NCBI GenBank assembly: GCA_030390025.1
Contig: JASTWF010000033.1
Coordinates: forward strand, 2,606,001-2,670,000
Direction: 5' to 3'
Length of the DNA: 64,000 bases
Origin: Squalus acanthias
Lineage: Eukaryota
Shown here: piece after piece, positions 12,576 to 30,955 of the stretch
Layout: each line of letters opens with the position of its first letter
How positions within the stretch are numbered: position 1 is the first letter of the stretch
Program-made: the position numbers and the translations under genes
The notes under the pieces: generated by a model
The model's input: only the letters and a program-made list of their open reading frames with translations
Databases searched by the model: none
What the model was told of the DNA's origin: nothing

Positions 12576-15500
12576 CCTCTGACAGTGCAGCACTCCCTCA
12601 GTACGAGCCCTCTGATAGTGCAGCACTCCCTCAGTACCGCCCCTCCGACATTGCGGCGCTCCCACAGTACTGCCCCACGACAGCGCAGCACTCCCTCAGT
12701 ACTGCCCCACGACAGCGCAGCACTCCCTCAGTACTGCCCCTCCGATAGTGCAGCGCTCCCTCAGTACTGCCCCTCCGACACTGCAGCGCTCCCTCTGTAA
12801 TCTCCCTCCGACAGTGCAGCACTACCTCAGTACTGGCGCTCCCACAGTGCAGCACTCCCTCAGCATTGCAAATCCGACAGTGAAGCACTCCCTCACTACT
12901 GCCCCTCCGACAGTGCGGCGCACCCTCAGTACTGGCTTTCCGACAGTGCGGCGCTCCCTCAGTACTGCCACTCTGACAGTGCAGCAATCCCTCAGAACTG
13001 CCCCTCTGAAAGTGCAGCGCTGCCTCAGTACTTCCCCTCCGACACTGCAGCACTCCCTCAGTACTGCCACTCCGACAGTGCAGCACGCCCTCAGTACTGC
13101 CCCTCCGATAGTGCAGCGCTCCCTCAGTACTGCCCCTCCGACACTGCAGCACTCCCTCAGTACTGCCCCTCCGACAGTGCAGCACTTCCTCAGTACTGCC
13201 CCTCCGAGAGTGCAGCACTCCCTCAGCATTGCAAATCCGACAAGGCAGCACTCCCTCACTACTGCTCCTCCGACAGTGCGGCGCTCCCTCAGTACTGGCC
13301 CTCCGACAGTGCGGCGCTCCCTCAGTACTGCCCCTCTGACAGTGCAGCACTCCCTCAGTACTGCCACTACGACAGTGCAGCACTACCTCAGTACTGCCCC
13401 TCCCCCAGTGCAGCACTCCCTCAGCATTGCAAATCCGACAAGGCAGCACTCCCTCACTACTGCTCCTCCGACAGTGTGGCGCTCCCTCAGTACTGGCCCT
13501 CCGACAGTGCGGCGCTCCCTCAGTACTGCCACTCTGACAGTGCAGCACCACCTCAGACCTGCCCCACCGACAGTGCAGCGCTGCCTCAGTACTGCCCCTC
13601 CGACACTGCAGCACTCCCTCAGTACTGCCACTCCGACAGTGCAGCACGCCCTCAGTACTGCCCCTCCGATAGTGCAGCGCTCCCTCAGTACTGCCCCTCC
13701 GACACTGCAGCACTCCCTCAGTACTGCCCCTCCGACAGTGCAGCACTTCCTCAGTACTGCCCCTCCGACAGTGCAGCACCACCTCAGACCTGCCCCACCG
13801 ACAGTGCAGCGCTGCCTCAGTACTGTCCCTCCGACACTGCAGCACTCCCTCAGTACTGCCACTCCGACAGTGCAGCACGCCCTCAGTACTGCCCCTCCGA
13901 TAGTGCAGCGCTCCCTCAGTACTGCCCCTCCGACACTGCAGCACTCCCTCAGTACTGCCCCTCCGACAGTGCAGCACTTCCTCAGTACTGCCCCTCCGAC
14001 AGTGCAGCACTCCCTCAGCATTGCAAATCCGATAAGGCAGCACTCCCTCACTACTGCTCCTCCGACAGTGCGGCGCTCCCTCAGTACTTGTCCTCCGACA
14101 GTGCGGCGCTCCCTCAGTACTGCCTCTCCGACAGTGCGGCGCTCCCTCAGTACTGGCCCTCCGAGAGTGCAGCGCTGCCTCAGTACTGCCCCTCCGACAG
14201 TACAGCACTCCCTCAGTGCTGCCCCTCGGACAGTGCAGCATCCTTCAGTGCTGCCCCTCCGAAAGTGCAGCACTCCCTCAGTACTGCCCCTCCGACAGTG
14301 CAGCGCTCTCTCAGTACTGCCCCTCCGACAGTGCAGCGCTCCCTCAGTACTGCCCCTCTGACAGTGGGGCACTCCCTCATTACTGCCCCTCCGACAGTGG
14401 GGCACTCCCTCAGTACTGTCCCTCTGACAGCGCAGCTCTCCCTCAGCACTGCCCCTCCGATAGTGCAGCGCTCCCTCAGTACTGGCCCTCCGACACTGCA
14501 GAACTCCCTCAGTACTGCCCCTCCGACAGTGCAGCACTTCCTCAGTACTGCCCTTCCGACAGTGCAGCACTCCCTCAGCATTGCAAATCCGACAGTGCAG
14601 CACTCCCTCACTACTGGCCCTCCGACAGTGCGGCGCTCCCTCAGTACTGCCACTCTGACAGTGCAGCACTCCCTCAGTACTGCCCCTCCGACAGTGCAGC
14701 GCTGCCTCAGTACTACCCCATCCGACAGTGCAGCGCTCCCTCAGTACTGCCCCTCCGACTGTGCGACGGTCCCTCAGTACTGCCCCTCGACAGTGCGGCG
14801 CTCCCTCAGTACTGCCCCTCCGACAGTGCAGCACTGCCGCACTCCCTCAGTACTGCACCTCCGACAGTACAGCACTCCCTCATTACTGCCCCTCCGACAG
14901 TGCAGCACTCCCTCAGTACTACCCATCCGACAGTGCAGCACTCCCTCAGTACTGCCCCTCCGACAGTGCGACGCTCGCTCAGTACTGCCCCTCGACAGTG
15001 CGGCGCTCCCTCAGTACTGCCCCTCCGACAGTACAGCACTCCTTCAGTGCTGCCCCTCCGACAGTGCAGCACTCCCTCAGTACTACCCATCCGACAGTGC
15101 AGCACTCCCTCAGTACTGCCCCTCGACAATGCGGCGCTCCCTCAGTAATGCCCCTCCGACAGTACAGCACTGCAGCACTATCTCAGTACTGCCCCTCCGA
15201 CAGTACAGCACTCCCTCAGTACTGCCCCTCGGACAGTGATGCATCCTTCAGTGCTGCCCCTCCGAAAGTGCAGCACTCCCTCAGTACTGCCCCTCCGACA
15301 GTGCAGCGCTCTCTCAGTACTGCCCCACCGACAGTGGTACACTCCCTCAGTACTGCCCCTCCGACAGTGCAGCACTCCCTCAGTATTGCCCATCCGACAG
15401 TGCGGCGCTCCCTCAGTACTGTCCCACTGACAGTGGGGCACTCCCTCAGTACTGCCCCTCCGACAGTGCAGCACTCCCTCAGTACTGCCCCTCCGACAGT

Positions 15501-16079
15501 ACAGCGCTCCCTCAGTACAGCCCCTCCGACAGTGCATCGCTCTCTCAGTACAGCCCCTCCGACAGTGCAGCGCTCCCTCAGGACAGCCCCTCCGACAGTG
15601 CCGCGCTCCCTCAATACTTCCCCTCGGACAGTGCAGCGCTCCCTCAGCACTGCCCCTCCGACATTGCAGCGCTCCCTCTGTACAGTCCCTCGGACAGTGC
15701 AGCGCTCCCTCATCACTGCCCTTCCGTCAGTGCAGCGCTCCTGCATTACTTCCCCTCCGACAGTGCAGCGCTCCCTCAGTACAGCCCCCCCGACAGTGCA
15801 GCGCTCCCTCTGTACAGCCCCTATGACAGTGCAGCGCTCCCTCAGTACAGCCCCCCCGACAGTGCAGCGCTCCCTCAGTACAGCCCCTACGATAGTGCAG
15901 TGCTCGCTCAGTACAGCCCCTCCGACAGTGCAGCGCTCCCTCAGTACTGCCCCTCCGACAGTGCAGCGCTCCCTCAATACAGCCCCTCCGGCAGTGCAAC
16001 GCTCCCTCAGTACAGCCCCCCCGACAGTGCAGCGCTCCCTCAGTACAGCCCTTCCGACAGTGCAGCACTGACAGTGCAG
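12546..16079. repeat. 33-bp tandem satellite (~107 units), consensus CCCCTCCGACAGTGCAGCACTCCCTCAGTACTG
   Basis: Direct reading; 11-aa periodicity in overlapping ORFs (STAPPTVQHSL / CPSDSAALPQY / RRGSTEGVLHC). Confidence 0.97.
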
Positions 16080-16344
16080 GGCCAAGCGGCCTACTCCTGT
16101 TCCTATTTCTTATGTTCATATGAAACAGTTAAGTATGTTACTTTCTGTTGACACTCCTTTTCCCATTTAGGCCTTATTTTACAGGTAATTGTGCAATGGC
16201 CTGATGGTCAGGACCGTAAGTTACGGAAAATGCCTCAGCCCAGATGAAGCAAGACACTGAGGTAGATTTGCGTTTCCCTTCTGCCTCGTACATTTTGGCA
16301 AATGGCAGTAGGCAGACGGAAATTATTTTTTCTTTAATATTTGA

Positions 16345-18384: not shown

Positions 18385-18988
18385 ATGGCGACGCATCACT
18401 CTGACTCATTGCCTCAGCCAGTGAAGGAAACACAAGAAGCTGAGCCTTCGACCCACCATCGTCAGTTAGATGCTAAGGATCTGCAGGCGATTATGTCTTT
18501 CACCAACTTTGACATAGCTAAATTGGTGGAGCAGATTGAAATCGACGACCATGTGATTTGCCGGCAAAGGAAGAGAGGCTTCAACCATCAGATGAGAAGT
18601 GAACTGAAGAGACTCAAGACCTTTGAGAGCTTCGATTCCTTTGCCACCTGGAATCCCGAGGAGATGGCGAGCGTGGGCTTTTATTACACGGGGTTGAAGA
18701 TGAGTGTGCAATGCTTCTGCTGTGGGGGAGTTTTCTGCAGTACCGGCATCACAAAATCGCCCGGGTCAGAGCATCAGACGTTTGAGCCGGACTGTGGCTT
18801 TGTGAAAACGTTGGATGTTGGAAACATTCCAAAGTATGCTGTGCGGGTCCAGGTACCTGAGGGTGTTCCGCTCAACCGAGCGGAACAGTTAAAAGGGCAA
18901 CAAGTCAGACTTGAGACCTTCAAAGGCTGGCCTTTCTACGTGAAGATGGAGCCTGATCTACTGGCAAAAGCAGGATTTTTCTTTACAG
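18385..18988 (+). CDS. NAIP: NAIP (BIRC1)-like gene, first coding exon: N-terminus, BIR1 and first half of BIR2
   Basis: GFNHQMRSELKRLKTF, VQCFCC-x16-H-x6-C, DVGNIPKYAVRV, RLETFKGWPFYV and AGFFFTG parallel human NAIP as recalled (GYNSQMRSEAKRLKTF, IQCFCC, DVGNIAKYDIRV, RLASFRNWPFYV, AGFVFTG). Acceptor ctag at 18378-18381, Kozak accATGG, donor AG|GTATTG at 18989 (phase 1). Confidence 0.88.
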
Positions 18989-19039
18989 GTATTGACAATC
19001 AGCAAATAACACATTGGGAGACAGTATATGAGTAATCGG

Positions 19040-20140
19040 AGACATGATGTGTGGTGAGTGCAGCGTGCGTAGTGGCAGGAGGCAGAGGGTGATGGTCGAA
19101 GCTTGTTTCTGTGACTGGAAGCCTGTGTCCAGTGGTGTACCGCAGGCATCGGTACTGGGTCCTTTGCTGTTTGTAGTGTACATTAATGATTAGATATGAA
19201 TGTAGGAGGTATGATCAGTAAGTTCGCAGATGACACGAAAATTGGTGGAGTGGTAAATAGCGAGGCGGGAAGCCTCAGGCTACAGGACTATATAGACGGG
19301 TTGGTCAGATGGGCAGAACAGTGGCAAATGGAATTTAACCCTGTAAAATGTGAGGTGATGCATTTTGGGAGGACTAACAAGGCAAGGGAATACACAATGG
19401 ATGGTAGGACCCTAGGAAGGACAGAGGATCAGAGGGACCTTGGTGTGCATGTACATATATCCCTGAAGGCAGCAGGACAGGTAGATAAGGTGGTTAAAAA
19501 TGCATATGGGATACTTGCCTTCATTAGCAGAGGCATAGAATATAAAAGCAGGGAGGTTATGATGGAGCTGTACAAAACGCTAGTTAGGCCACAGCTGGAA
19601 TACTGTGTGCAGTTCTGGTCGCCACACTATAGGAAGGATGTGATTGCATTGAAGAGGGTGCAGAGGAGATTCACCAGGATGTTACCTGGGCTGGAGCGCT
19701 TCAGCTATGAAGAGAGATTGAGAGGCTGGGGTTGTTTTCATTAGAGCAGAGAAGGCTGAGGTGGGACCTGATTGAGGTGTAAAAAATTATGAGGGGCATA
19801 GTTAGGGTAGATAGAAAGGAGCTTTTCCCCTTAGTAGAGGGGTCAGTAACCAGGGGGCATAGTTTCAAGGTAAGGAGCAGGAGGTTTAAAGGGGATTTGA
19901 GGAAAAGCTTTTTCACCCAGAGGGTGGTTGGAATCTGGAACTCACTGCCTGAAAGGGTGGTAGAGGCAGGAACCATCACAACATTCAAGAAGCATTAAAT
20001 GAGCACTTGAAACTCCATAGCATACAAGGCTACGGACCAAGTGCTGGAAAATGGGATTAGAATAGATAGGGCATGATGGCCGGCGCGGACACGATGGGCC
20101 GAAGGGCCTCTTTCTGTGCTGTATAACTCTTTGACTCTAT
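19040..20140 (+). mobile_element. CR1 LINE 3' portion (intronic to NAIP)
   Basis: ORFs 19196-19744 and 19789-19998 (FADD, RPQLEYCVQFWSPH); nearly the same subfamily as 27600-29165. Confidence 0.9.
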
Positions 20141-20459
20141 GTTCGGGAGGAGCATTTTACTTTGGACCTCTGGTTCCCAAAGATCTCGAACCACTGGGGG
20201 TTTTCCTCGCCTCATGTCTGAGTCTGTTGTAGACTCATTGATGGAGATTGATTGCCACGATTGGTCAACAATTCCACTGACGTTGTATCTTGCGACTACC
20301 AGGATGGTAGAAGGCGGACTAGATGGACTAGATCTTTTTTAGTCTAGAATTTCCTATGTTCCTATGTTTCTATGAAGAATAGACACTCTACCAGTTAATT
20401 CCCCTTTGCCACTCCAACATACCCAAACCTCTCCTTGTTTCCAACTTCATGAATGCATA

Positions 20460-22700
20460 GGATTACATAGAATGTACAGCACAGAAACAGGCCATTCAGC
20501 CCAACCAGCCCATGTCTGCGTTTACACTCCACTCGAGCCTGCTCCCATCCTTCCTCATCTAACTCTACCAGCACCTCTATTCCCTTCTCCTTCCTGTGCT
20601 TATCTAGCTTCCCCTTAAATGCATCTATAGTATTTGCCTCAACCACTCACTGTGGTACCGAGTTCCACATTCTCACCACTCTCTGAGTAAATAAGTTCTT
20701 CTGAATTACCTACTGGATTTCTTGGTGACTATCTTATATTGATGGCCTCTAGTTTTGCTCTTCCCCACATGTGGAAACATAGAAGAAAATAGGAGCAGGA
20801 GTAGGTCATTCAGCCCCTCGAGCCTGCTCCGCCGTTCAATGCGATAATGGCTGAACATCCATTTTAGTTACCCTGTTCCGGCTTTCTCCCCATATCCCTG
20901 ATCCCCTTAGCCTTAAGAAATATATCTAACTCCTTATTGAATATATTTAATGAATAGGAATCAACTGTCTTCTGTGGTAGAGAATTCCACAGGTTCACCA
21001 GTCTCTGGGTGAAGAAATTCCTCCTCATCTCAGTCTTAAATGGCTTACCCCTTATCTTTAGATTGTGGCCCGCTGGATCTGGACTCCTCCGCCATCGGGA
21101 ACATCCTTCCTGCATCTAGTCTGTCTAGTCCTTTTTAGAATTTTATACGTTTCAATGAGATCCCCTCTCATTCTTCTAATCTCTAGTGAATACAAGCCCA
21201 ATCGACCCAATCTCTCTTCATACATCATTCCTGCCATCCCAGGTATCAGTCTGGTGAATCTTCGCTGACTCCCTCCATGGCAAGAACATCCTTCCTCAGA
21301 TAAGGCGACCAAAACTGCACACAATACTCAAGGTGTGGTCTCACCAAGGCACTGTACAACTGCAGCAAGACATCCTTGCTCCTGTACTTGTATCCTCCCG
21401 CTATGAAGGCCAACGTACCATTTGCCTTCTTAACCGCCTGCTGCACCTGCATGCTTACCTTCAGCGACTGGTGCACAAGGACACCCAGGTCTAGTTGCAC
21501 TTCCCCTTTTCCCAATCTATTGCCGTTCAAATACTAATCTTCCTTCCTGTTTTTGCCCCCAAAGTGGATAACCTCGCATTTATCCACACATCTGCCATGC
21601 ATCTGCCCAATCACCCAACCTGTCCAATTCATACTGGAGTTTCTCTGCATGCTCCTCACAGCACACACACACACCCAGCTTTGTGTCGCCTGCAAACTTA
21701 GAGATATTACATCTAGTTCCCTCATCTAGATCATGAATATATATTGTGAATAGCTGGGGTCCTAGCACCGATCCCTGCGGTACCCCACTAGTCACTGCCT
21801 GCCACTTGGAAAAAGACCCGTTTATTCCAACTCTTTGCTTCCTGTCTGCCCAACAGTTTTCTAGCCAAGTCAGTACCTTACCCCCATACCCATGTGCTTT
21901 GATTTTGCACGCTAATCTCTTATGCGGGACCTTATCGAAAGCCTTCTGAAACTCCAAACACACCACATCCACTGGTTCTCCCTTATCTATTCTACTTGTT
22001 ACATCCTCAAAAAATTCCATTAGATTAGTCAAGCCTGATTTACCTTTTGTCAATCCATGTTGACTTTGTCCGATCCTGTCACTGTTTTTCAAGTGCTCTG
22101 CTATTACATCTTTTATAATGGAATCTTGCATTTCGCCCGATGTCAGGCTTACCGGTCTATAATTCCCCGTTTTCTCTCTATCACCTTTTTTAAATAGTGG
22201 GTTTACATTAGCTAACCTCCAATCCATGGGAACTGTTCCAGAGTCTATATGTTTTGGAAGATGACCATCAATGCATCTACTATTTCTAGGGCCACTTTCT
22301 TAATTACCCTAGGAAGTAGATTATCAGGCCCTGGGGATTTATCGGCCTTCAATCCTGTCAATTTCCCTAACGCCATTTCCCTACAAATATTGATTTCATT
22401 CAGTTCCTCCCTCTCATTAGACCCTATGTTCCCCGAAATCTCTGGGAGGTTATATGTGTCCTCCTTTGTGAAGACAGAACCAAAGTATGTATTTAAACAC
22501 ACTCTCTGTATCCAATCTATCAAAACCATTCATCATTTTAAAGACGTCTATTAGGTCACCCCTCAGCCTTCTCCTTCCAAGAGAAAAGGGACCCAGGCTG
22601 TTCATACTTTCCTGATAGGTATACTCTCGCAGTCCTGGTTTCATCCTTGTAAATCTTCTTTGCACCGCCGTTAGTGCCTCTACATCGTTTTTATACTAGA
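20460..22700 (-). mobile_element. CR1 copy (~20777-22495) nested in an older CR1 3' fragment
   Basis: RT ORFs 21580-22227, 21246-21530, 21058-21324; host fragments at 20460-20780 and 22496-22700. Confidence 0.85.
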
Positions 22701-24119
22701 ATTGCTGACATGCTCAAACTCTACTGCGCCCTTTGCTCTATTGTCCCCATTGGACAAGATTTCTGACAATGATTTATGTTATTGATGATGACTTGACTTG
22801 ACTATTCCAACGCACTGCTGGCCGGCCACCCTACTTCCGCCCTGAATAAACGTGAATTCATCCAAAATTCTGCCACGGAGTGCAGATCGGAACAGAGTGT
22901 TAAATTGCGAGTTTGGTGAGTGAGGGAGTTCGGGGAGGGAGGTGTTCCTTTATTTTTCCGTCTTTTTCTGCTTCCAGGAGAGCAGGAGCTAAAAAGCTGC
23001 ACAAGAGGGGACATGGAACCAGCGTTGAGTATTTCTACAGTCTTTCTGCATTCTAGTCGTTAAAGTAAAAGTAAGGGCTCTCGTTTAGAGTAAGTAGCGT
23101 TTAAAGGGAAGTAAGGCCCCTCGTGTATTTAATATTCTTAAATTTAAAGAGAGTAAATTAAGGGTAGGACATGGCAGGTCAGCTCGGCAGCGTGGAGTGC
23201 TCCTCCTGTGCTATGTTGGAAGTCAGGGGCACTTTAGTTGTCCAGGGCGAACACATGTACAGGTAAGTGTCACCAGCTGCAGCTACTCCAAATCCGCGTT
23301 TCAGAGCTGGAGCTGTGGCTGGATTCACTGTGGAGCATCCGCAAAGCTGAGATCTACGTGGATAGCACGTTTAACGATGTGGTCCCAACGCAGGTAAAGA
23401 GTGCACAGGCAGACAGGGAAAGGATGACCGCCAGACTGAATAAAAGAAGCAGGAAGGTAGCGCAGAAGTCCCCTCAGTCCATCTCCATCTCTGACAGATT
23501 TTCCGTTTTGGATACTGATGGGGGAGATGGTTTCTCAGGGGAATGCAGCAAGAGCCAAATCCGTGGCACTACGAGTGGCTCAGCTGCACAGGAGATGAGG
23601 AAAAAGAATGGGAGAGCAATAGTAATAGGGTGTTCTATCGTAAGGCGAACAGATAGACGTTTCTGTGGCCGCAGCCGTGACTCCAGGATGGAGTGTTGCC
23701 TCCCTGGTGCCAGGGTCAAGGATGTCACTGAACGGCTGCAGGGCATTCTGAAGGAGGAGGGCGAACAGTCAGAGGTCGTGGTTCACATTGGTACCAACGA
23801 CATGGGTAGAAAGACGGATGAGATCCTGCAACAAGAATTTAGGAGCTAGGTAGCTGATTAAAAAGCAGGACCTCAAAGTTTGTAACCTCTGGATTACTCC
23901 CGGTGCCACGTGCTAGTGAGTATAGGAATAGGAGGATAGAGCTGATGAATGCGTGGCTAAATAGTTGGTGCAGGAGGGAGGGCTTTAGTTTCCTGGATCA
24001 CTGGGTCTGCTTCTGGTGAAGGTGGGATCTGTACAAGTCGGACGGGTTGCACTTGAACTGGAACGGGACCAAATTCCTTGCGGGGAGATTTGCTCGTACT
24101 GTTGGGGAGGCGGGGGGTT

Positions 24120-25671
24120 ACATAGATACATAGAAGATAGAAGCAGGAGTAGGCCATCCGGCCCTTCGAGCCTGCTCCGCCATTTAATGAGATCATGGCT
24201 GATCCTCCAATTCAGTATCCCGTCCCCGCCTTCTCTCCGTAACCCTTAACCCCTTTTGCCTGTAGAAATATATCTAATTCCCTCTTAAATATATTTAATG
24301 AGCTGGCGTACACTGCCCTCTGTGGCAATGAGTTCCACAGGTTCACCACCCTCTGAGTGAAGAAATTCCCCCTCATTTCTGTCCTAAATGGTTTAGCCCT
24401 TATCCTTAAATTATGTCCTCTAGTTCTGTTCTCACCCGCCAAGGGAAACATTCCTTCTGCATCTAGTCTGTCTAGACCTGTCAGAATTTTATACACTTCT
24501 ATGAGGTCCCCTCTCAATCTTCTAAACTCCAGTGTGTACATCCCTAAACTACATAGTCTCTCCTCATAGGTCAATCCCGCCATTCCTGGTATCAGCCTGG
24601 TGAATCGCCGCTGCACCCCCTCCATGGCAAGAACATCTTTCCTCAGATGAGGCGACCAAAACTGTACACAGTACTCGAGGTGTGGTCTCACCAGTGCCCT
24701 GTACAGCTGCAGCAAGGTATCCCTGTTCCTGTATTCCAACCCTTTTGCTATGAAGGCCAGCATACCGTTTGCCTTCTTGATCGCCTGTTGCACCTGCATG
24801 CTCGCCTTCAGTGACTGGTGTACAAGAACACCCAGGTCTCTCTGTACTTCCCCCTCTCCCAATTTATTGCCATTTAAATAATAATTTGCCCTCCCGTTCC
24901 TGCACCCAAGGTGGATAACTTCGCACTTGTCCACATTATAGTGCATCTGCCATTTATCCGCCCAATCACCCAGTCTGTCCAAATCGCTCTGGAGCTTCCT
25001 GGTCTCCTCCTCTGAGCCCACCCCCCCTCCTAGTTTAGTGTCGTCTGCAAATTTGGAAATGCTGCATCCGACTCCCTGATCCAGGTCATTAATGTAAATT
25101 GTGAACAGCTGGGGACCCAGGACAGATCCCTGTGGTACCCCACTTGTTACTGCCTGCCATTCAGAAAATGAGCCGTTTATTCCAACTCTCTGTTTTCTAT
25201 CTGACAGCCAGTTCTCTATCCACGTCAATACTTTCCCCTTTATCCCATGAGCTTCAATTTTCCCTGCTAATCTTTTATGTGGGACCTTATCGAAGGCCTT
25301 TTGGAAGTCCAGGTACACCACATCTACTGGCTCTCCCCCATCTATTTTACCAGTTACTCCCTCAAAAAATTCCAATAGATTAGTCAAGCACGATTTACCC
25401 TTTGTAAATCCATGTTGACTCTGTCCTATCCTGTCCCCATTTGCTAAGTGCTCCGCTATTTCATCCTTAATGATGGACTCCAGCATTTTGCCCACAACTG
25501 ATGTAAGGCTTACAGGTCTGTAATTACCTGCTTTTTCCCTACCCCCCTTTTTGAATAGTGGGGTAACGTTAGCTACCCTCCAATCCATGGGCACTGTTCC
25601 CGAGTCTAATGAATTCTGAAAAATCATACTTAGTGCATCCGCTATCTCTAGGGCCACCTCCTTCAGCACCC
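24120..25671 (-). mobile_element. Young 5'-truncated CR1 with an uninterrupted 485-aa RT ORF (24212-25669)
   Basis: YRPVSLTS, QHGF, YLDFQKAFD, GVPQGSVLGP and FADD through to the natural stop with no frameshift; inserted at the ORF1 end of the host CR1. Confidence 0.95.
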
Positions 25672-28143
25672 TTAAAATAACTTGGCAGGAGGATGGGATA
25701 TGGAGTGGAGCTATAGTAGGGGTTGATGCACAGCCAACTATAGAGGAAAAAACAAGTCAGCCTGAAAGGCAGAGCAAATATGTAACGGCACAAGGGAGTA
25801 TGGCAAGGCTGATGGCATTTATTTTAATGCAAGAATTCTTGCGAGTAAGGCAGATGAATTGAAGGTGTTTCTGAACACATGGGAGTATGATATTGTTGCT
25901 ATCACAGAGACATGGTTGAGGGTGGGGCAGTACTGGCAGCTCAATAGTCCGGGGAATAGAATCTTCAGGCGAGACAGATGGGGGTATAAAAGAGGCGGTG
26001 GTGTCGCAATATTAATCAAGGAGTCAATTACTGCTATGAGGAGGGATGATATCTTAGCAGGCTCCTCTAATGAGGCCGTATGGGTAGAACTTAAAAACAA
26101 AAAGGGGGCAAGCACTTTGCTGGTAGTGTACTATAGGCCCCCAAACAATCAGGGGGAGATAGAGGAACAGTATGTAGGCAAATCTCAGAGAAGTTTCGAA
26201 ATAATAGGGTAATAATAGTAGGGGATTTCAACTTCCCCACTATTAACTTGGATAGTCAGAGTGTGAAAGGCTTGGAGGGTGCAGAATTCTTAAAGTGCAT
26301 CCAGGAGACCTTTTTGAGCCAGCATGCAGAAAGTCCTACAAGGGAGGGGGCGGTACTGGACCTAATTCTAGTGTATGTAGACGGGCAAGTGGTAGAAGTG
26401 TTAGTAGGAGAGCATTTTCTTGACAGTGACCATAATTCGGTGAGATTTAAGGTAGTCATGGAAAAGGACAAAGATGGAACGGAAATAATCGTTCTAAATT
26501 GGGGGAAGGCCGATTTTAATATGATAAGGCAGGATCTGGCCAAAGTGAACTGGGATCAGCTACTTGAGGGAAAATCCACATCAGTGCAGTGGGAGTCTTT
26601 CAGAAAGGAAATAGATAGATTACAACGGCAACATGTTCCCGTAAATGTCAAGGGTGGGACCAACAAGCGCAGGGAACCATGGAAGTCAAGGGATATACGA
26701 GAATGGAGTAGGAAAAAATGTGAGGCTTTTGGCAGATACAAAGGACTAAAAACAGTGGAAGCCTTAGAGGAGTATAGAAAGTGCAGGGGGCTATATAAAA
26801 AAGAAATTAGGAGAGCGAAGGGGGGCATGAAATAACACTGGTGGGCAAAATAAAGGAAAATCCCAAGGTGTTTTATAAGTATTTTAAGGGCAAGAGGATA
26901 ACCAGGGAAAGAGTAGGGCTCATTAGGGACCAAAGTGGCAATCTGTGTTTGGAGCCTAAAATATGTAGGTGGGGTTTTAAATGTATATTTTGCATCTGTG
27001 ATCACTATGGAGAAGGACGAGGTAGGCATATAAATTAGACAGGGGGATTGTGATATACTTCAACAAATTAGTATTGAGAGGGAGGAGGTACTAGGGGTTT
27101 TAGCGGGCTTAAAAGTGGATAAATCCCCAGGCCCAGACGAGATGTGTCCCAGGCTGCTGTATGAGGCAAGGGAGGAGATTCTAAGGGATCTGACACAAAT
27201 TTTCAGAACCTCTCTGGCCACAGGGGATGTGCCAGAGGACTGGAGAACAGCTAACGTAGTACCATTATTCAAGAAGTGTAGTAGGGATAAACCAGGGAAT
27301 TATAGGCCAGTGAGCCTAACATCAGTGGCAGGGAAATTATTGGAAAGAATTCTGAGGGACAGAATTAGTCTCCACTTGGAGAGGCAAGGATTAATCAAGG
27401 ATAGTCAGCATGGCTTTGTCAGGGGGAGATCATGTCTGACCAATTTGATTGAATTTTTCGAGGGGGTGACTAGGTGTGTGGATGAGGGTAGTGCAGTTGA
27501 TGTGGTCTACATGGACTTCAGTAAGGGTTTTGATAAATCCTGCATGGGAGACTGGTCAAGACGATAAGGGCCCATGGGAGCCAGGGCAACTTGGCACATT
27601 GGATCCAAAATTGGCTTAGTGGCAGGAGGCAGAGGGTGATGGTCGAAGGTTGTTTTTGTGACTGGAAGCCTGTGTCCAGTGGTGTATCGCAGGGATCGGT
27701 GCTAGGTCCTTTGCTGTTTGTAGTGTACATTAATGATTTAGATATGAATGTAGGAGGTATGATCAGTAAGTTCGCAGATGCCACGAAAATTGGTGGGGTG
27801 GTAAATAGCGAGGAGGGAAGCCTCAGGCTACAGGAAGATATAGACGGGTTGGTCAGATGGGCAGAACAGTGGCAAATTAAATTTAACCCTGAAAAATGTG
27901 AGGTGATGCATTTTGGGAGGACTAACAAGGCAAGGGAATGCACAATGAATGGTAGGACCCTAGGAAGGACAGAGGATCAGAGGGACCTTGGTGTGCATGT
28001 ACATAGACCCCTGAAGGCAGCAGGACAGTTGATAAGCTGTTTAAAAAGACATATGGGATACTTGCCTTCATTAGCCGAGGCATAGAATATAAGATTGAGA
28101 GGTCGCACAACACCAGGTTATAGTCCAACAGTTTTATTTGAAA

Positions 28144-28186
28144 TCACAAGCTTTCGGAGCTATCGATTTGCTCCTTCCTCAGGTGA
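28144..28186 (-). ncRNA. Minimal hammerhead ribozyme, intact core
   Basis: TCAC-CTGAGGA-A-GGAGC-aaatcgata-GCTCC-GAAA-G-C-TT-GTGA on the minus strand. Confidence 0.8.
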
Positions 28187-28419
28187 AGTAAATTAGATAC
28201 AGAATCGCCAAAGCATATATAGATAGAAAACAAAGCATGTGTACTTTACAATTGCAGACCAATAAATTAAATCATCCTGACTATCTGCCGAGGTGTGATA
28301 AAGTTTATCACACCTCGGCAGATAGTCAGGATGATTTAATTTATTGGTCTGCAATTGTAAAGTACACATGCTTTGTTTTCTATCTATATATGCTTTGGCG
28401 ATTCTGTATCTAATTTACT

Positions 28420-28462
28420 TCACTTGAGGAAGGAGCAAATCGATAGCTCCGAAAGCTTGTGA
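28420..28462 (+). ncRNA. Hammerhead ribozyme copy with mutated core (CUGA>UUGA)
   Basis: TCAC-TTGAGGA-A-GGAGC-aaatcgata-GCTCC-GAAA-G-C-TT-GTGA. Confidence 0.75.
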
Positions 28463-29166
28463 TTTCAAATAAAACTGTTGGACTATAACCTGGTGTTGTG
28501 CGACCTCTCAATTTTGCCCACCCCAGTCCAACACCGGCATCTCCGCATCATAGAATATAAGAGCAGGGAGGTTATGATGGAGCTGTACAAAACTCTAGTT
28601 AGGCCACAGCTGGAATATTGTGTGCAGTTCTGGTCGCCACACTCTCGGAAGGATATGATTGCATTGGAGAGGATGCAGAGGAGATTCAACAGGATGTTAC
28701 CTGTGCTGGAGCGCTTCAGCTATGAAGAGAGACTGGACAGGCTGGGGTTGTTTTCCTTGGAGCAGAGAAGGCTGAGTTTGGACCTGATTGAGGTGTACAA
28801 AATTATGGGGGGCGTAGATAGGCTAGATAGAAATGAACGTTTCCCCTTAGTAGAGGGGTCAATAACAAGGGGGCATAGTTTCAAGTTAAGGGGCAGGAGG
28901 TTTAAAGGGGATTCGAGGAAAAGCTTTTTCACCCAGAGGGTGGTTGGAATCTGGAACTCACTGCCTGAAAGGGAGGTAGAGGCAGGAAACCTCACAACAT
29001 TCAAGAAGCATTTAGATGAGCACTTGAAAAGCCACAGCATACAAGGCTACGGAACAAGTGCTGGAAAATGGGGTTAGAATAGACAGGGCTTGATGGCCGG
29101 CGCGGACACGATGGGCCGAAGGTTCTCTTTCTGTGCTGTATAACTCTATGACTCTATGACTCTATG

Positions 29167-29818
29167 TCCTAACTCGCACCAAGTCCTGTTCACCCATCTC
29201 CCCTGTGCTCACTGACCTACATTGTCTCCCAGTTAAGCAACACCTCGATTTTAAAATTCTCATCCTTGTTTTCATATCCATCCACGGCCTCGACCCTCCC
29301 TATCTCTGTAATCTTCTCCAGCCCTATAATCCCCCGAGATATCTGTGCTCTGCCAAATCTGGTCCCTTTAACAGCCCTGATTTTAATTGCTCCACGATTG
29401 TCGACCGTGCCTTCAGCGGCCTAGCCCCTAAGCTCAGGAATTCCCTCCCTAAACTTCTCCGCCTCGCTACCTCTCTTTTCTCTTTTAAGGTGCTCCTTAA
29501 AACCTGCCTCTTTGACAAAGCTTTTGGCCATATGCACTAACATCTCCTCATATTCGTTAAAAAGTACTTGGATATGCTCATGAAGTGCCGTAAGCTACAA
29601 GGCTACGGACCAAGTGCTGGAAAGTGGGAGTAGGGTGGATAGCTCTTTGTCGACCGGCACGGACAAGATGGGCCGAATGGCTTCCTTCTGTGCTGTAAAT
29701 TTCTATGATTCCATGATTATATGGCTAGGTATCAAATTTTGTATTTTATTAATGCTCCTGTGAAGCGCCTTGTGATGATTTATTACGTTAAAGGCACCAT
29801 ATAAATGTAAGTTGTTGT
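29167..29818 (+). mobile_element. L2 3' end, interrupted by a CR1 3' fragment (~29555-29720)
   Basis: ORF 29205-29540 (LHCLPVKQHLDFKILILVF...RAFSGLAPKLRNSLP); tail tacgttaaaggcaccatataaatgtaagttgttg. Confidence 0.75.
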
Positions 29819-30087
29819 GATATTGTGATTGTCCCAACACAGTCTAGGTAGAAATCCTACAATCATCATGCAGGGGAGATTTCTTTTTGAAACTCTAAGT
29901 TCTAGAGGTGATAGTGCAGTGTTCTAACCCATCAGACCACCTCATCCCTCATGACATGCGACACCCAGCAAAGAATGGAAGTGTTGATCACAAGCCAGGT
30001 TCACCAAGAGAGCGCGGACTGTTGGCTGAAACATCGAACTAGAATTTCCTATCCAGCCATGATTGTTCCTAACTACTCATCCAACAG

Positions 30088-30187
30088 GTATCAAGGATAA
30101 AGTCCAGTCCTTTTCCTGTGGTGGGAGCTTAGCAAACTGGGAAGAAGGCGGTGATCCATGGAAGGAGCATTCCAAATGGTTTCCAGA
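30088..30187 (+). CDS. NAIP: NAIP-like gene, second coding exon (second half of BIR2)
   Basis: Acceptor cag 30085-30087, donor GTAAGT 30188; 100 nt, phase 1 to phase 2, in frame with 18988. Encodes (G)[32 protein letters not shown], vs recalled human NAIP [33 protein letters not shown]. Confidence 0.88.
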
Positions 30188-30380
30188 GTAAGTTAAGTCT
30201 GCATATTTGGCAGGGTGATGGAGGAGAGCAATAATGGTCCACTTCCCTGGAGCAAGGCATCATCCCATAGAACAGCAGGATTTGACCGATGTAGATATTG
30301 GCAGGGATTGAGTACTTCCACATATGTGCACACCATCCTGGCCTCGCATGCACCTCGAAACAGGAGCGTCTGGAGCCTAG

Positions 30381-30955
30381 TTCTCTGAACTCCAGTGTGT
30401 TGGTGTTGTGCGTTCTCTGAACTCCAGTGTGTCAGCACTGTGCGTTCGCTGAAATAAGCAGTGTTAGCGCTGTACATTCTCTGAACTCCAGTGTGTTAGC
30501 GCTGTGCGTTCTCTGAACTCGGTCGTGTTAGTGTTGTGCGTTCTCTGAAATAAGTAGTGTTAGTGTTGTGCATTCTCTGAACTCCAGTGTGTTAGAGCTG
30601 TGCATTCTCTGGACTCCAGTGTGTTGGCGCGGCGCGTTCTCTGAAATAAGTAGTGTTAGCGCTGTGCATTCTCTGAACTCCAGTGTGTTGGTGCTGTGCA
30701 TTCTCTGAACTGCAGTGTGTTGGTGCTGTGCGCTTTCTGAAATAAGTAGTATTAGCGCTGTGCATTCTCTGAACTCCAGTGTGTTAGTGCTGTGCATTCC
30801 CTGAACTCCAGTGTGTTAGCGCTGTGCGTTCTCTGAAATAAGTAGTGTTAGCGCTGTGCGTTCGCTGAAATAAGCAGTGTTAGCGCTGTGCGTTCTCTTG
30901 AAATCAGTGGTGTTAGCACTGTGGGTTCTCTGAACTCCAGAGTGCAGCGCTGTGT
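30381..30955. repeat. 32-bp minisatellite with 96-bp higher-order period
   Basis: Units ttctctgaactccagtgtgttagcgctgtgca and ttctctgaaataagtagtgttagcgctgtgcg; 32-aa repeat in ORF 30528-30797. Confidence 0.9.

Follow-up and report, generated by a model that had tools for sequence, protein, structure and literature searches.

An inverted, 5'-truncated copy accompanied by a tail of 30 to 40 bp is described as typical of insertions made by endonuclease-bearing (EN+) Penelope-like elements (PLEs) (Craig et al. 2021; PMC8557442). In rotifers, Penelopes show palindromes at head-to-head junctions, target-site duplications (TSDs) of 8 to 10 bp, and a 31-bp tail (Arkhipova et al. 2013; PMC3846280). The Poseidon protein of Anolis cuts and extends both target strands, and reverse transcription begins at two internal sites in the RNA, one at either boundary of the tail (Frangieh et al. 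2024; PMC11167929). The same study reports that insertion in vitro can proceed without the hammerhead and that a C3G change abolishes the activity of the Anolis PLE hammerhead. Minimal hammerheads of PLEs occur as dual motifs on opposite strands, 100 to 700 bp apart; the monomer was not cleaved in vitro, and dimers cleaved at a low level (Cervera and de la Peña 2014; PMC4209133). The passages of that paper on metazoan PLE hammerheads make no mention of sharks, and no shark Penelope family with a hammerhead was found in the literature searched, although subscription papers, Repbase or Dfam entries, and supplements may hold one.

Here, we analyze an insertion in an intron of a NAIP/BIRC1-like gene, within a window of 64 kb (the whole stretch of DNA that was analyzed). 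A near-perfect palindrome, a one-sided tail, and a TSD together represent, with a probability of roughly 0.85, a recent, heavily 5'-truncated insertion of an EN+ PLE in which two end fragments lie head to head. Every architectural element of this insertion is already in print.

Results

Pairing outward from the center of the palindrome gave arms of 209 bp each (28094 to 28302 and 28304 to 28512) around a lone unpaired G at 28303, in the context AAA-G-TTT. The sole mismatch between the arms is G28182 against T28424, and pairing fails again from offset 210, bearing out the anatomy given in the preliminary description. A repeat search extends the arms to 212 bp at 99% by including a second mismatch, and the runner-up among perfect palindromes in the window has arms of only 15 bp. 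A28094 doubles as the final base of the left TSD copy, and thus 208 bp of arm are unambiguous. The left arm proper (28095 to 28302, − strand) is an inverted, 5'-truncated pLTR fragment that ends at the short 3' end of its family, while the right arm (28304 to 28512, + strand) is a 5'-truncated pLTR fragment in the sense orientation. The insert has no coding sequence, as all three sense frames are interrupted. A blastn search found no other copies of the family in the window.

The insertion is flanked by a 14-bp exact repeat, CATAGAATATAAGA, at 28081 to 28094 and 28549 to 28562 (both on the + strand), which occurs nowhere else in the window. A paralog of the host LINE at 19067 to 20141, which lacks the insertion and is 94.4% and 92.6% identical to its two flanks, has this site once; thus, the duplicated 14-mer is a TSD, in agreement with the 13 to 14 bp proposed earlier. 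The tail (28511 to 28551, + strand) is one-sided, as had been described, but measures 41 nt rather than 36 nt when bounded by the two ends of the family, and its final 3 nt are common to the TSD. Both flanks belong to one colinear, RT-bearing LINE copy on the + strand, decayed and split by the insertion (25766 to 29160, outer limits approximate), as judged from pieces of open reading frame (ORF), the paralog, and a Pfam RVT_1 match (E = 1.5e-13). The RT context claimed for the insertion was therefore recovered, but the CR1 label attached to it found no support in the domain search; we take the host LINE to be of the CR1 type. The two LINE copies at 19067 to 20141 and 26900 to 29200 are 93 to 94% identical, belong to one subfamily, and share the same intron and orientation.

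To place the insertion within its family, we aligned four of 21 listed public sequencing runs (X1, X5, X16, and X21; 55% of X5 was read) to a 338-nt query (28303 to 28640), comprising 250 nt of arm and tail and 88 nt of LINE, with a likeness cutoff of 88%. The best runs contain only 0.45 to 0.49 of the sequence words and may come from a related species; X21 is a raw-read run of another organism, and X16 is only guessed to be RNA. The query begins at the center of the palindrome, and therefore family sequence upstream of 28304 and the left junction lie outside its reach. Contigs aligned in large numbers (13,720 in X1, 10,139 in X5, and 2,098 in X16), together with 13 reads of X21, and 4,249 of the 13,720 X1 contigs were at least 99% identical to the query. 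The arm and the LINE flank have summed depths of the same order, indicating that the family is young and very abundant. Both arms of the palindrome carry minority alleles at 28361 and 28378, where the majority allele of the family is another one, with 62% and 75% of X1 depth, respectively.

The runs also revealed that the family has two alternative 3' ends. Among the 21 of 470 rows listed, loose ends fell at 28510 in 54 (X1), 43 (X5), and 16 (X16) contigs and at 28551 in 100, 81, and 21 contigs, respectively; in X21, 3 of the 13 aligned reads end at 28508 and 3 at 28552. These two ends coincide with the outer ends of the insertion. The short end matches that of the left arm (28095 mirrors 28511, and the loose ends at 28510 mirror 28095 to 28096), and the long end matches that of the right arm with its tail. 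A joint between opposite strands (28338/28396), listed in X1, represents another inverted copy, with an asymmetric center. With at least one such joint listed, and that one asymmetric, the X1 joints do not support the idea that symmetric palindromes are common in the family. None of the listed read pieces or contigs spans the junctions or the center of the palindrome itself.

A further joint connects the short end to the same LINE position (28510 to 28549-28551), with a depth of 939.5 in X1 and 151.9 in X5, against 8 to 15 and 17 to 24, respectively, for other joints; it is also present in X16, and its shorter side is only 21 to 22 letters long. This depth suggests either tens of independent insertions at the site or amplification of one composite. 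Since it lies far above single-copy depth, the LINE position is a candidate recurrent target site. Separately, we observed that related subfamilies share the final ~100 nt and differ in hammerhead stem II and its loop (loose ends before 28439 to 28446 in X1, X5, and X16), and that depth over these ~100 nt is 3 to 5 times that over the rest of the arm.

Each arm contains a 43-nt hammerhead-like motif, at 28144 to 28186 on the − strand and at 28420 to 28462 on the + strand, built from a 4-bp stem I, CUGAGGA, one extra A, a 5-bp stem II, and GAAA-GC-UU. A descriptor of the minimal type-I hammerhead, written by hand after the motif had been seen, matched three times when both strands of the window were searched (6255+, 28424+, and 28182−) and 0 times in 60 first-order simulated windows. 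The left-arm motif has the full core (C3UGA-N-GA9 ... G12AAA, U16.1, H17, stems I and II, an extra base after A9, and a palindromic 15.2-16.2), with C3 at 28182 and a predicted cut after 28148. The right-arm motif departs from the minimal type-I core by U3, a C3-to-U change at 28424. The covariance-model check suggested in the preliminary description yielded no hammerhead when run with Rfam: hammerhead families accounted for 0 of 24 matches at E ≤ 10 and for 0 of 2 in a second search, and what Rfam returned otherwise was generic hairpin (microRNA-model) matches under the gathering score. Such silence is expected for a motif without stem III. A microRNA precursor was rejected as an alternative, with microRNA-model scores of 60, driven by the palindrome, against gathering scores of 94 to 97. 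The earlier claim of a minimal hammerhead in each arm thus stands on the descriptor motif and the fold but found no match among the Rfam hammerheads, and we regard both motifs, identified by the descriptor and the consensus in the literature, as predicted ribozymes. A cis-dimer of the two was also rejected, as they lie on opposite strands. Folded in silico without tertiary contacts, two copies of the 43-nt motif reach −20.1 kcal/mol in the dimer form, versus −31.7 kcal/mol for the best alternative duplex.

The features described above fit an EN+ PLE in several respects: a hammerhead motif detected by the descriptor within a terminal repeat, a terminal-repeat copy that is inverted head to head and 5' truncated, two alternative 3' ends with an optional tail in the 30-to-40-bp class (X1, X5, X16, and X21), and a TSD in AT-rich DNA with no poly(A) (14 bp, with an empty paralog). 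Membership in the PLE class is very probable. Anatomy, family ends, and abundance likewise support the earlier proposal of a very young, noncoding PLE insertion that is inverted and carries a tail, a TSD, and minimal hammerheads. When a partner ORF encoding RT and endonuclease was sought, the element end gave 0 matches in viral, metagenome, and genome contig collections, and we infer the Penelope identity of the family from these features rather than from a linked ORF.

A second element in the window is informative here. An ORF piece on the − strand (3668 to 5050) has homologs that carry PF00078 (RT) and PF01541 (GIY-YIG), and its PLE nature follows from these domains of the homologs; Pfam assigned 0 families to the piece itself. 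After this ORF, near 3325 to 3365, is a hammerhead motif that is built in the same way and has G at position 17. A truncated partner in the opposite orientation lies at 5993 to 6353 (+ strand; 70% over 407 columns) and has an intact motif at 6255. The segments at 3264 to 5850 (−) and 5993 to 6353 (+) apparently constitute a second, older PLE interrupted by a LINE piece. By analogy, the link between ORF and hammerhead in this second family supports the PLE reading of the palindrome.

Other features of the window include two inverted tRNA-Lys(CTT) genes (2013 to 3121) with flanks of ~284 bp that are 90% complementary, tRNA-Ala calls at 7354 and 31151, and a long GC-rich tandem repeat at 12600 to 16150 with several open frames on both strands.

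The structure as a whole lies in an intron of a NAIP/BIRC1-like gene (18989 to 30087, + strand), which was delimited by tblastn and HMM searches with shark NAIP proteins and by GT-AG ends. The exon upstream (18385 to 18988, +) has shark BIRC1/NAIP as its best match (57 to 73% identity over the eight top matches), which very likely places the genome among the cartilaginous fishes, and a second NAIP-like exon follows at 30088 to 30187 (+). Because both exons are on the + strand, the insertion lies within an 11-kb intron with its U3 arm on the sense strand. The assertion that the sole arm mismatch hits the hammerhead core on the NAIP sense strand and leaves the antisense copy intact was thereby confirmed, with C3 on the − strand. 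Exon 2 reads QSFSC, versus QCFSC in 7 of 7 shark homologs listed, with Ser in place of Cys at the first zinc ligand of BIR2. NAIP HMMs found no later exon over the next 33.8 kb to the end of the window (nothing below E = 0.68), which a longer intron could explain. This NAIP copy is possibly a partial or decaying paralog and may be defective. Just 3' of exon 2 is a 32-bp minisatellite of ~20 units (30285 to 30941).

Discussion

How could two end fragments come to lie head to head around a single base? We put forward, tentatively and at somewhat less than even odds, that the insertion is the footprint of two-ended priming at two internal start sites, at a recurrent LINE hot spot. The GIY-YIG nuclease of the element would make a 14-nt staggered cut at the AT-rich LINE site. 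The 3' end of the bottom strand would then prime cDNA at the outer RNA start site (28551) and that of the top strand at the inner one (about 28511), and these unequal start sites would leave only one side with the 41-nt tail. Synthesis of the first cDNA would end at 28304, this cDNA would fold back at a short quasi-palindrome (an assumed sequence), the copy-back strand would pair with the second cDNA, and repair would seal the symmetric junction. The hammerhead would be family baggage throughout. We infer these priming and joining steps from the layout of the insertion, and for the detailed joining path we consider the chances about equal either way. The 3' ends of the TSD can pair with element sequence immediately beyond the corresponding family end, AAGA-3' with UUUU (3 Watson-Crick pairs and 1 wobble) and ATG-3' with CAU; primer-template matches of 3 to 4 nt fit pure fold-back equally well.

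Pure self-priming is the closest competitor, although we consider it rather unlikely. Here, one cDNA begun at the long end would fold back at 28303 and copy itself, and the copy would be cut or stop at the short end and join the other target end, with no second priming. An exactly symmetric center follows naturally from this scheme, which has been proposed for the junction palindromes of rotifer Penelopes (PMC3846280), and the tail has been ascribed to nuclease resolution (PMC8557442). The minority alleles common to both arms at 28361 and 28378 also agree with it but fit either model. However, under self-priming it must be explained separately why the left arm ends exactly at a site that corresponds to an RT start site of the Anolis element in vitro (PMC11167929). 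Additionally, an error in the first strand would enter both arms, so under self-priming the single mismatch must have arisen after insertion.

A dedicated nonautonomous palindromic element, MITE-like or retrozyme-like and mobile as a fixed unit of 454 bp, would account for an insert without coding sequence and for an arm sequence present in very many copies, but we consider this improbable. Animal retrozymes are head-to-tail tandems (bioRxiv 10.64898/2026.07.22.740005), and another inversion joint lies elsewhere in the family (28338/28396). No pileup of molecule ends was reported in the runs. In X1, the depth drop at the 28303 edge resembles that at the LINE edge (205k-571k-963k versus 210k-611k-1146k), which suggests that the family continues past the center, a weak test given that the query began there. 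We also rejected a MITE in the strict sense, as the insertion lacks terminal inverted repeats around a spacer and carries both a tail and a long TSD. Palindromes that are near perfect and have tiny loops form a known class of artifact, and no listed read piece spans this one, but an assembly or library fold-back is highly improbable because it would mirror the flank too, yet the LINE is colinear on both sides, a 14-bp TSD is present, the outer ends are two distinct family ends, and the arms differ at one base.

The core mutation poses a separate question. Position 28424 is C in 721,446.6 of 721,668 depth in X1, in 406,632 of 406,804 in X5, and in all of X16, so that core position 3 is C in 99.97% of family depth and U3 accounts for at most 0.03 to 0.04%. 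U3 is therefore private or rare within the family, and the right arm is the derived copy. The preliminary description raised the possibility of selection against cleavage of the NAIP pre-mRNA. That the only mismatch between the arms falls in the core of the sense copy is in keeping with this view, as is the need for C3 in the Anolis PLE hammerhead, where C3G abolishes activity (PMC11167929). A search of the literature for activity data on C3U itself yielded, from the relevant part of PMC7151607, the core consensus alone. The sense copy has 11 core bases, and a random single change would fall on one of them with p ~0.03, a coincidence noticed after the fact.

Predicted folds argue against selection. 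The predicted fold of the + strand transcript of the insert has −384.9 kcal/mol, imposing the hammerhead on it costs +71.5 kcal/mol, and in a nascent RNA ending at 28465 the whole motif is already paired. Owing to the head-to-head arrangement of the arms, the hammerhead comes second in a read-through of either strand and is fully paired to the first arm; the intact antisense copy would, on the same model, be buried likewise in antisense read-through. The sense copy also has U at position 17, and U17 makes a slower cleavage triplet. It is a lone monomer without stem III and without a cis-dimer partner, of a kind that showed no activity in vitro in the single case examined (PMC4209133), the NAIP copy itself is possibly defective (the Cys-to-Ser change, with no later exon found in the window), and there is one event only. 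Thus, we consider selection very doubtful. As the 209-bp hairpin of read-through RNA is predicted to bury the hammerhead, the C3-to-U change was likely neutral and due to chance, whether it arose as a copying error or by later mutation; neutrality is our interpretation of these folds. The double-stranded hairpin of ~200 bp foreseen for the NAIP intron is retained as a prediction of ~209 bp if the intron is transcribed through, and stubs of this type, if so transcribed, would place double-stranded hairpins of ~200 bp in introns.

Taken singly, this copy carries little weight, as it is the published layout of PLE insertions in its smallest form. Across the genome, the two 3' ends of the family, its target preference, and its inverted junctions could separate fold-back from two-primer integration of Penelope, steps that the in vitro work leaves open in the account given in PMC11167929. 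If two-ended priming is true, mini-palindromes of this kind would make shark genomes a source from which to read the second half of the Penelope transposition cycle, a stage still unresolved.

Among known systems, animal non-LTR retrozymes are likewise noncoding, PLE-derived, and equipped with a type-I hammerhead, but they are head-to-tail tandems with hammerheads on one strand, whereas the arms here are head to head and the insertion has both a tail and a TSD (bioRxiv 10.64898/2026.07.22.740005). We rejected a non-LTR retrozyme, as the arms are inverted and the motifs lie on opposite strands. The motifs resemble the minimal type-I hammerheads of PLEs described in PMC4209133 in their short stem I, the extra base between positions 9 and 10.1, G10.1-C11.1, the palindromic 15.2-16.2 without a loop 3, and the pairing of motifs on opposite strands at a spacing of 100 to 700 bp. 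They differ in stem II, which here has 5 bp and a 9-nt loop, and U3 here stands opposite G8, in contrast to the natural U3-A8 covariant in that comparison. Like PAc (Poseidon of Anolis carolinensis; PMC11167929), the family has two internal 3' ends past the hammerhead that bound the tail, an AT-rich target, and an AC-rich end. Unlike PAc, it is known here from its sequence, and its two ends fall 52 and 93 nt beyond the predicted site of cleavage. Compared with published Penelope and Poseidon insertions of EN+ PLEs (PMC3846280 and PMC8557442), the one analyzed here consists of two end fragments only, with no ORF, and is palindromic over its entire insert with a 1-nt center; its TSD is 14 bp, versus 8 to 10 bp in the rotifer cases (PMC3846280), and its tail is 41 nt, versus 30 to 40. 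With those insertions it shares head-to-head terminal fragments, a junction palindrome, a tail at one end, a TSD, an AT-rich target, and insertion into another retrotransposon.
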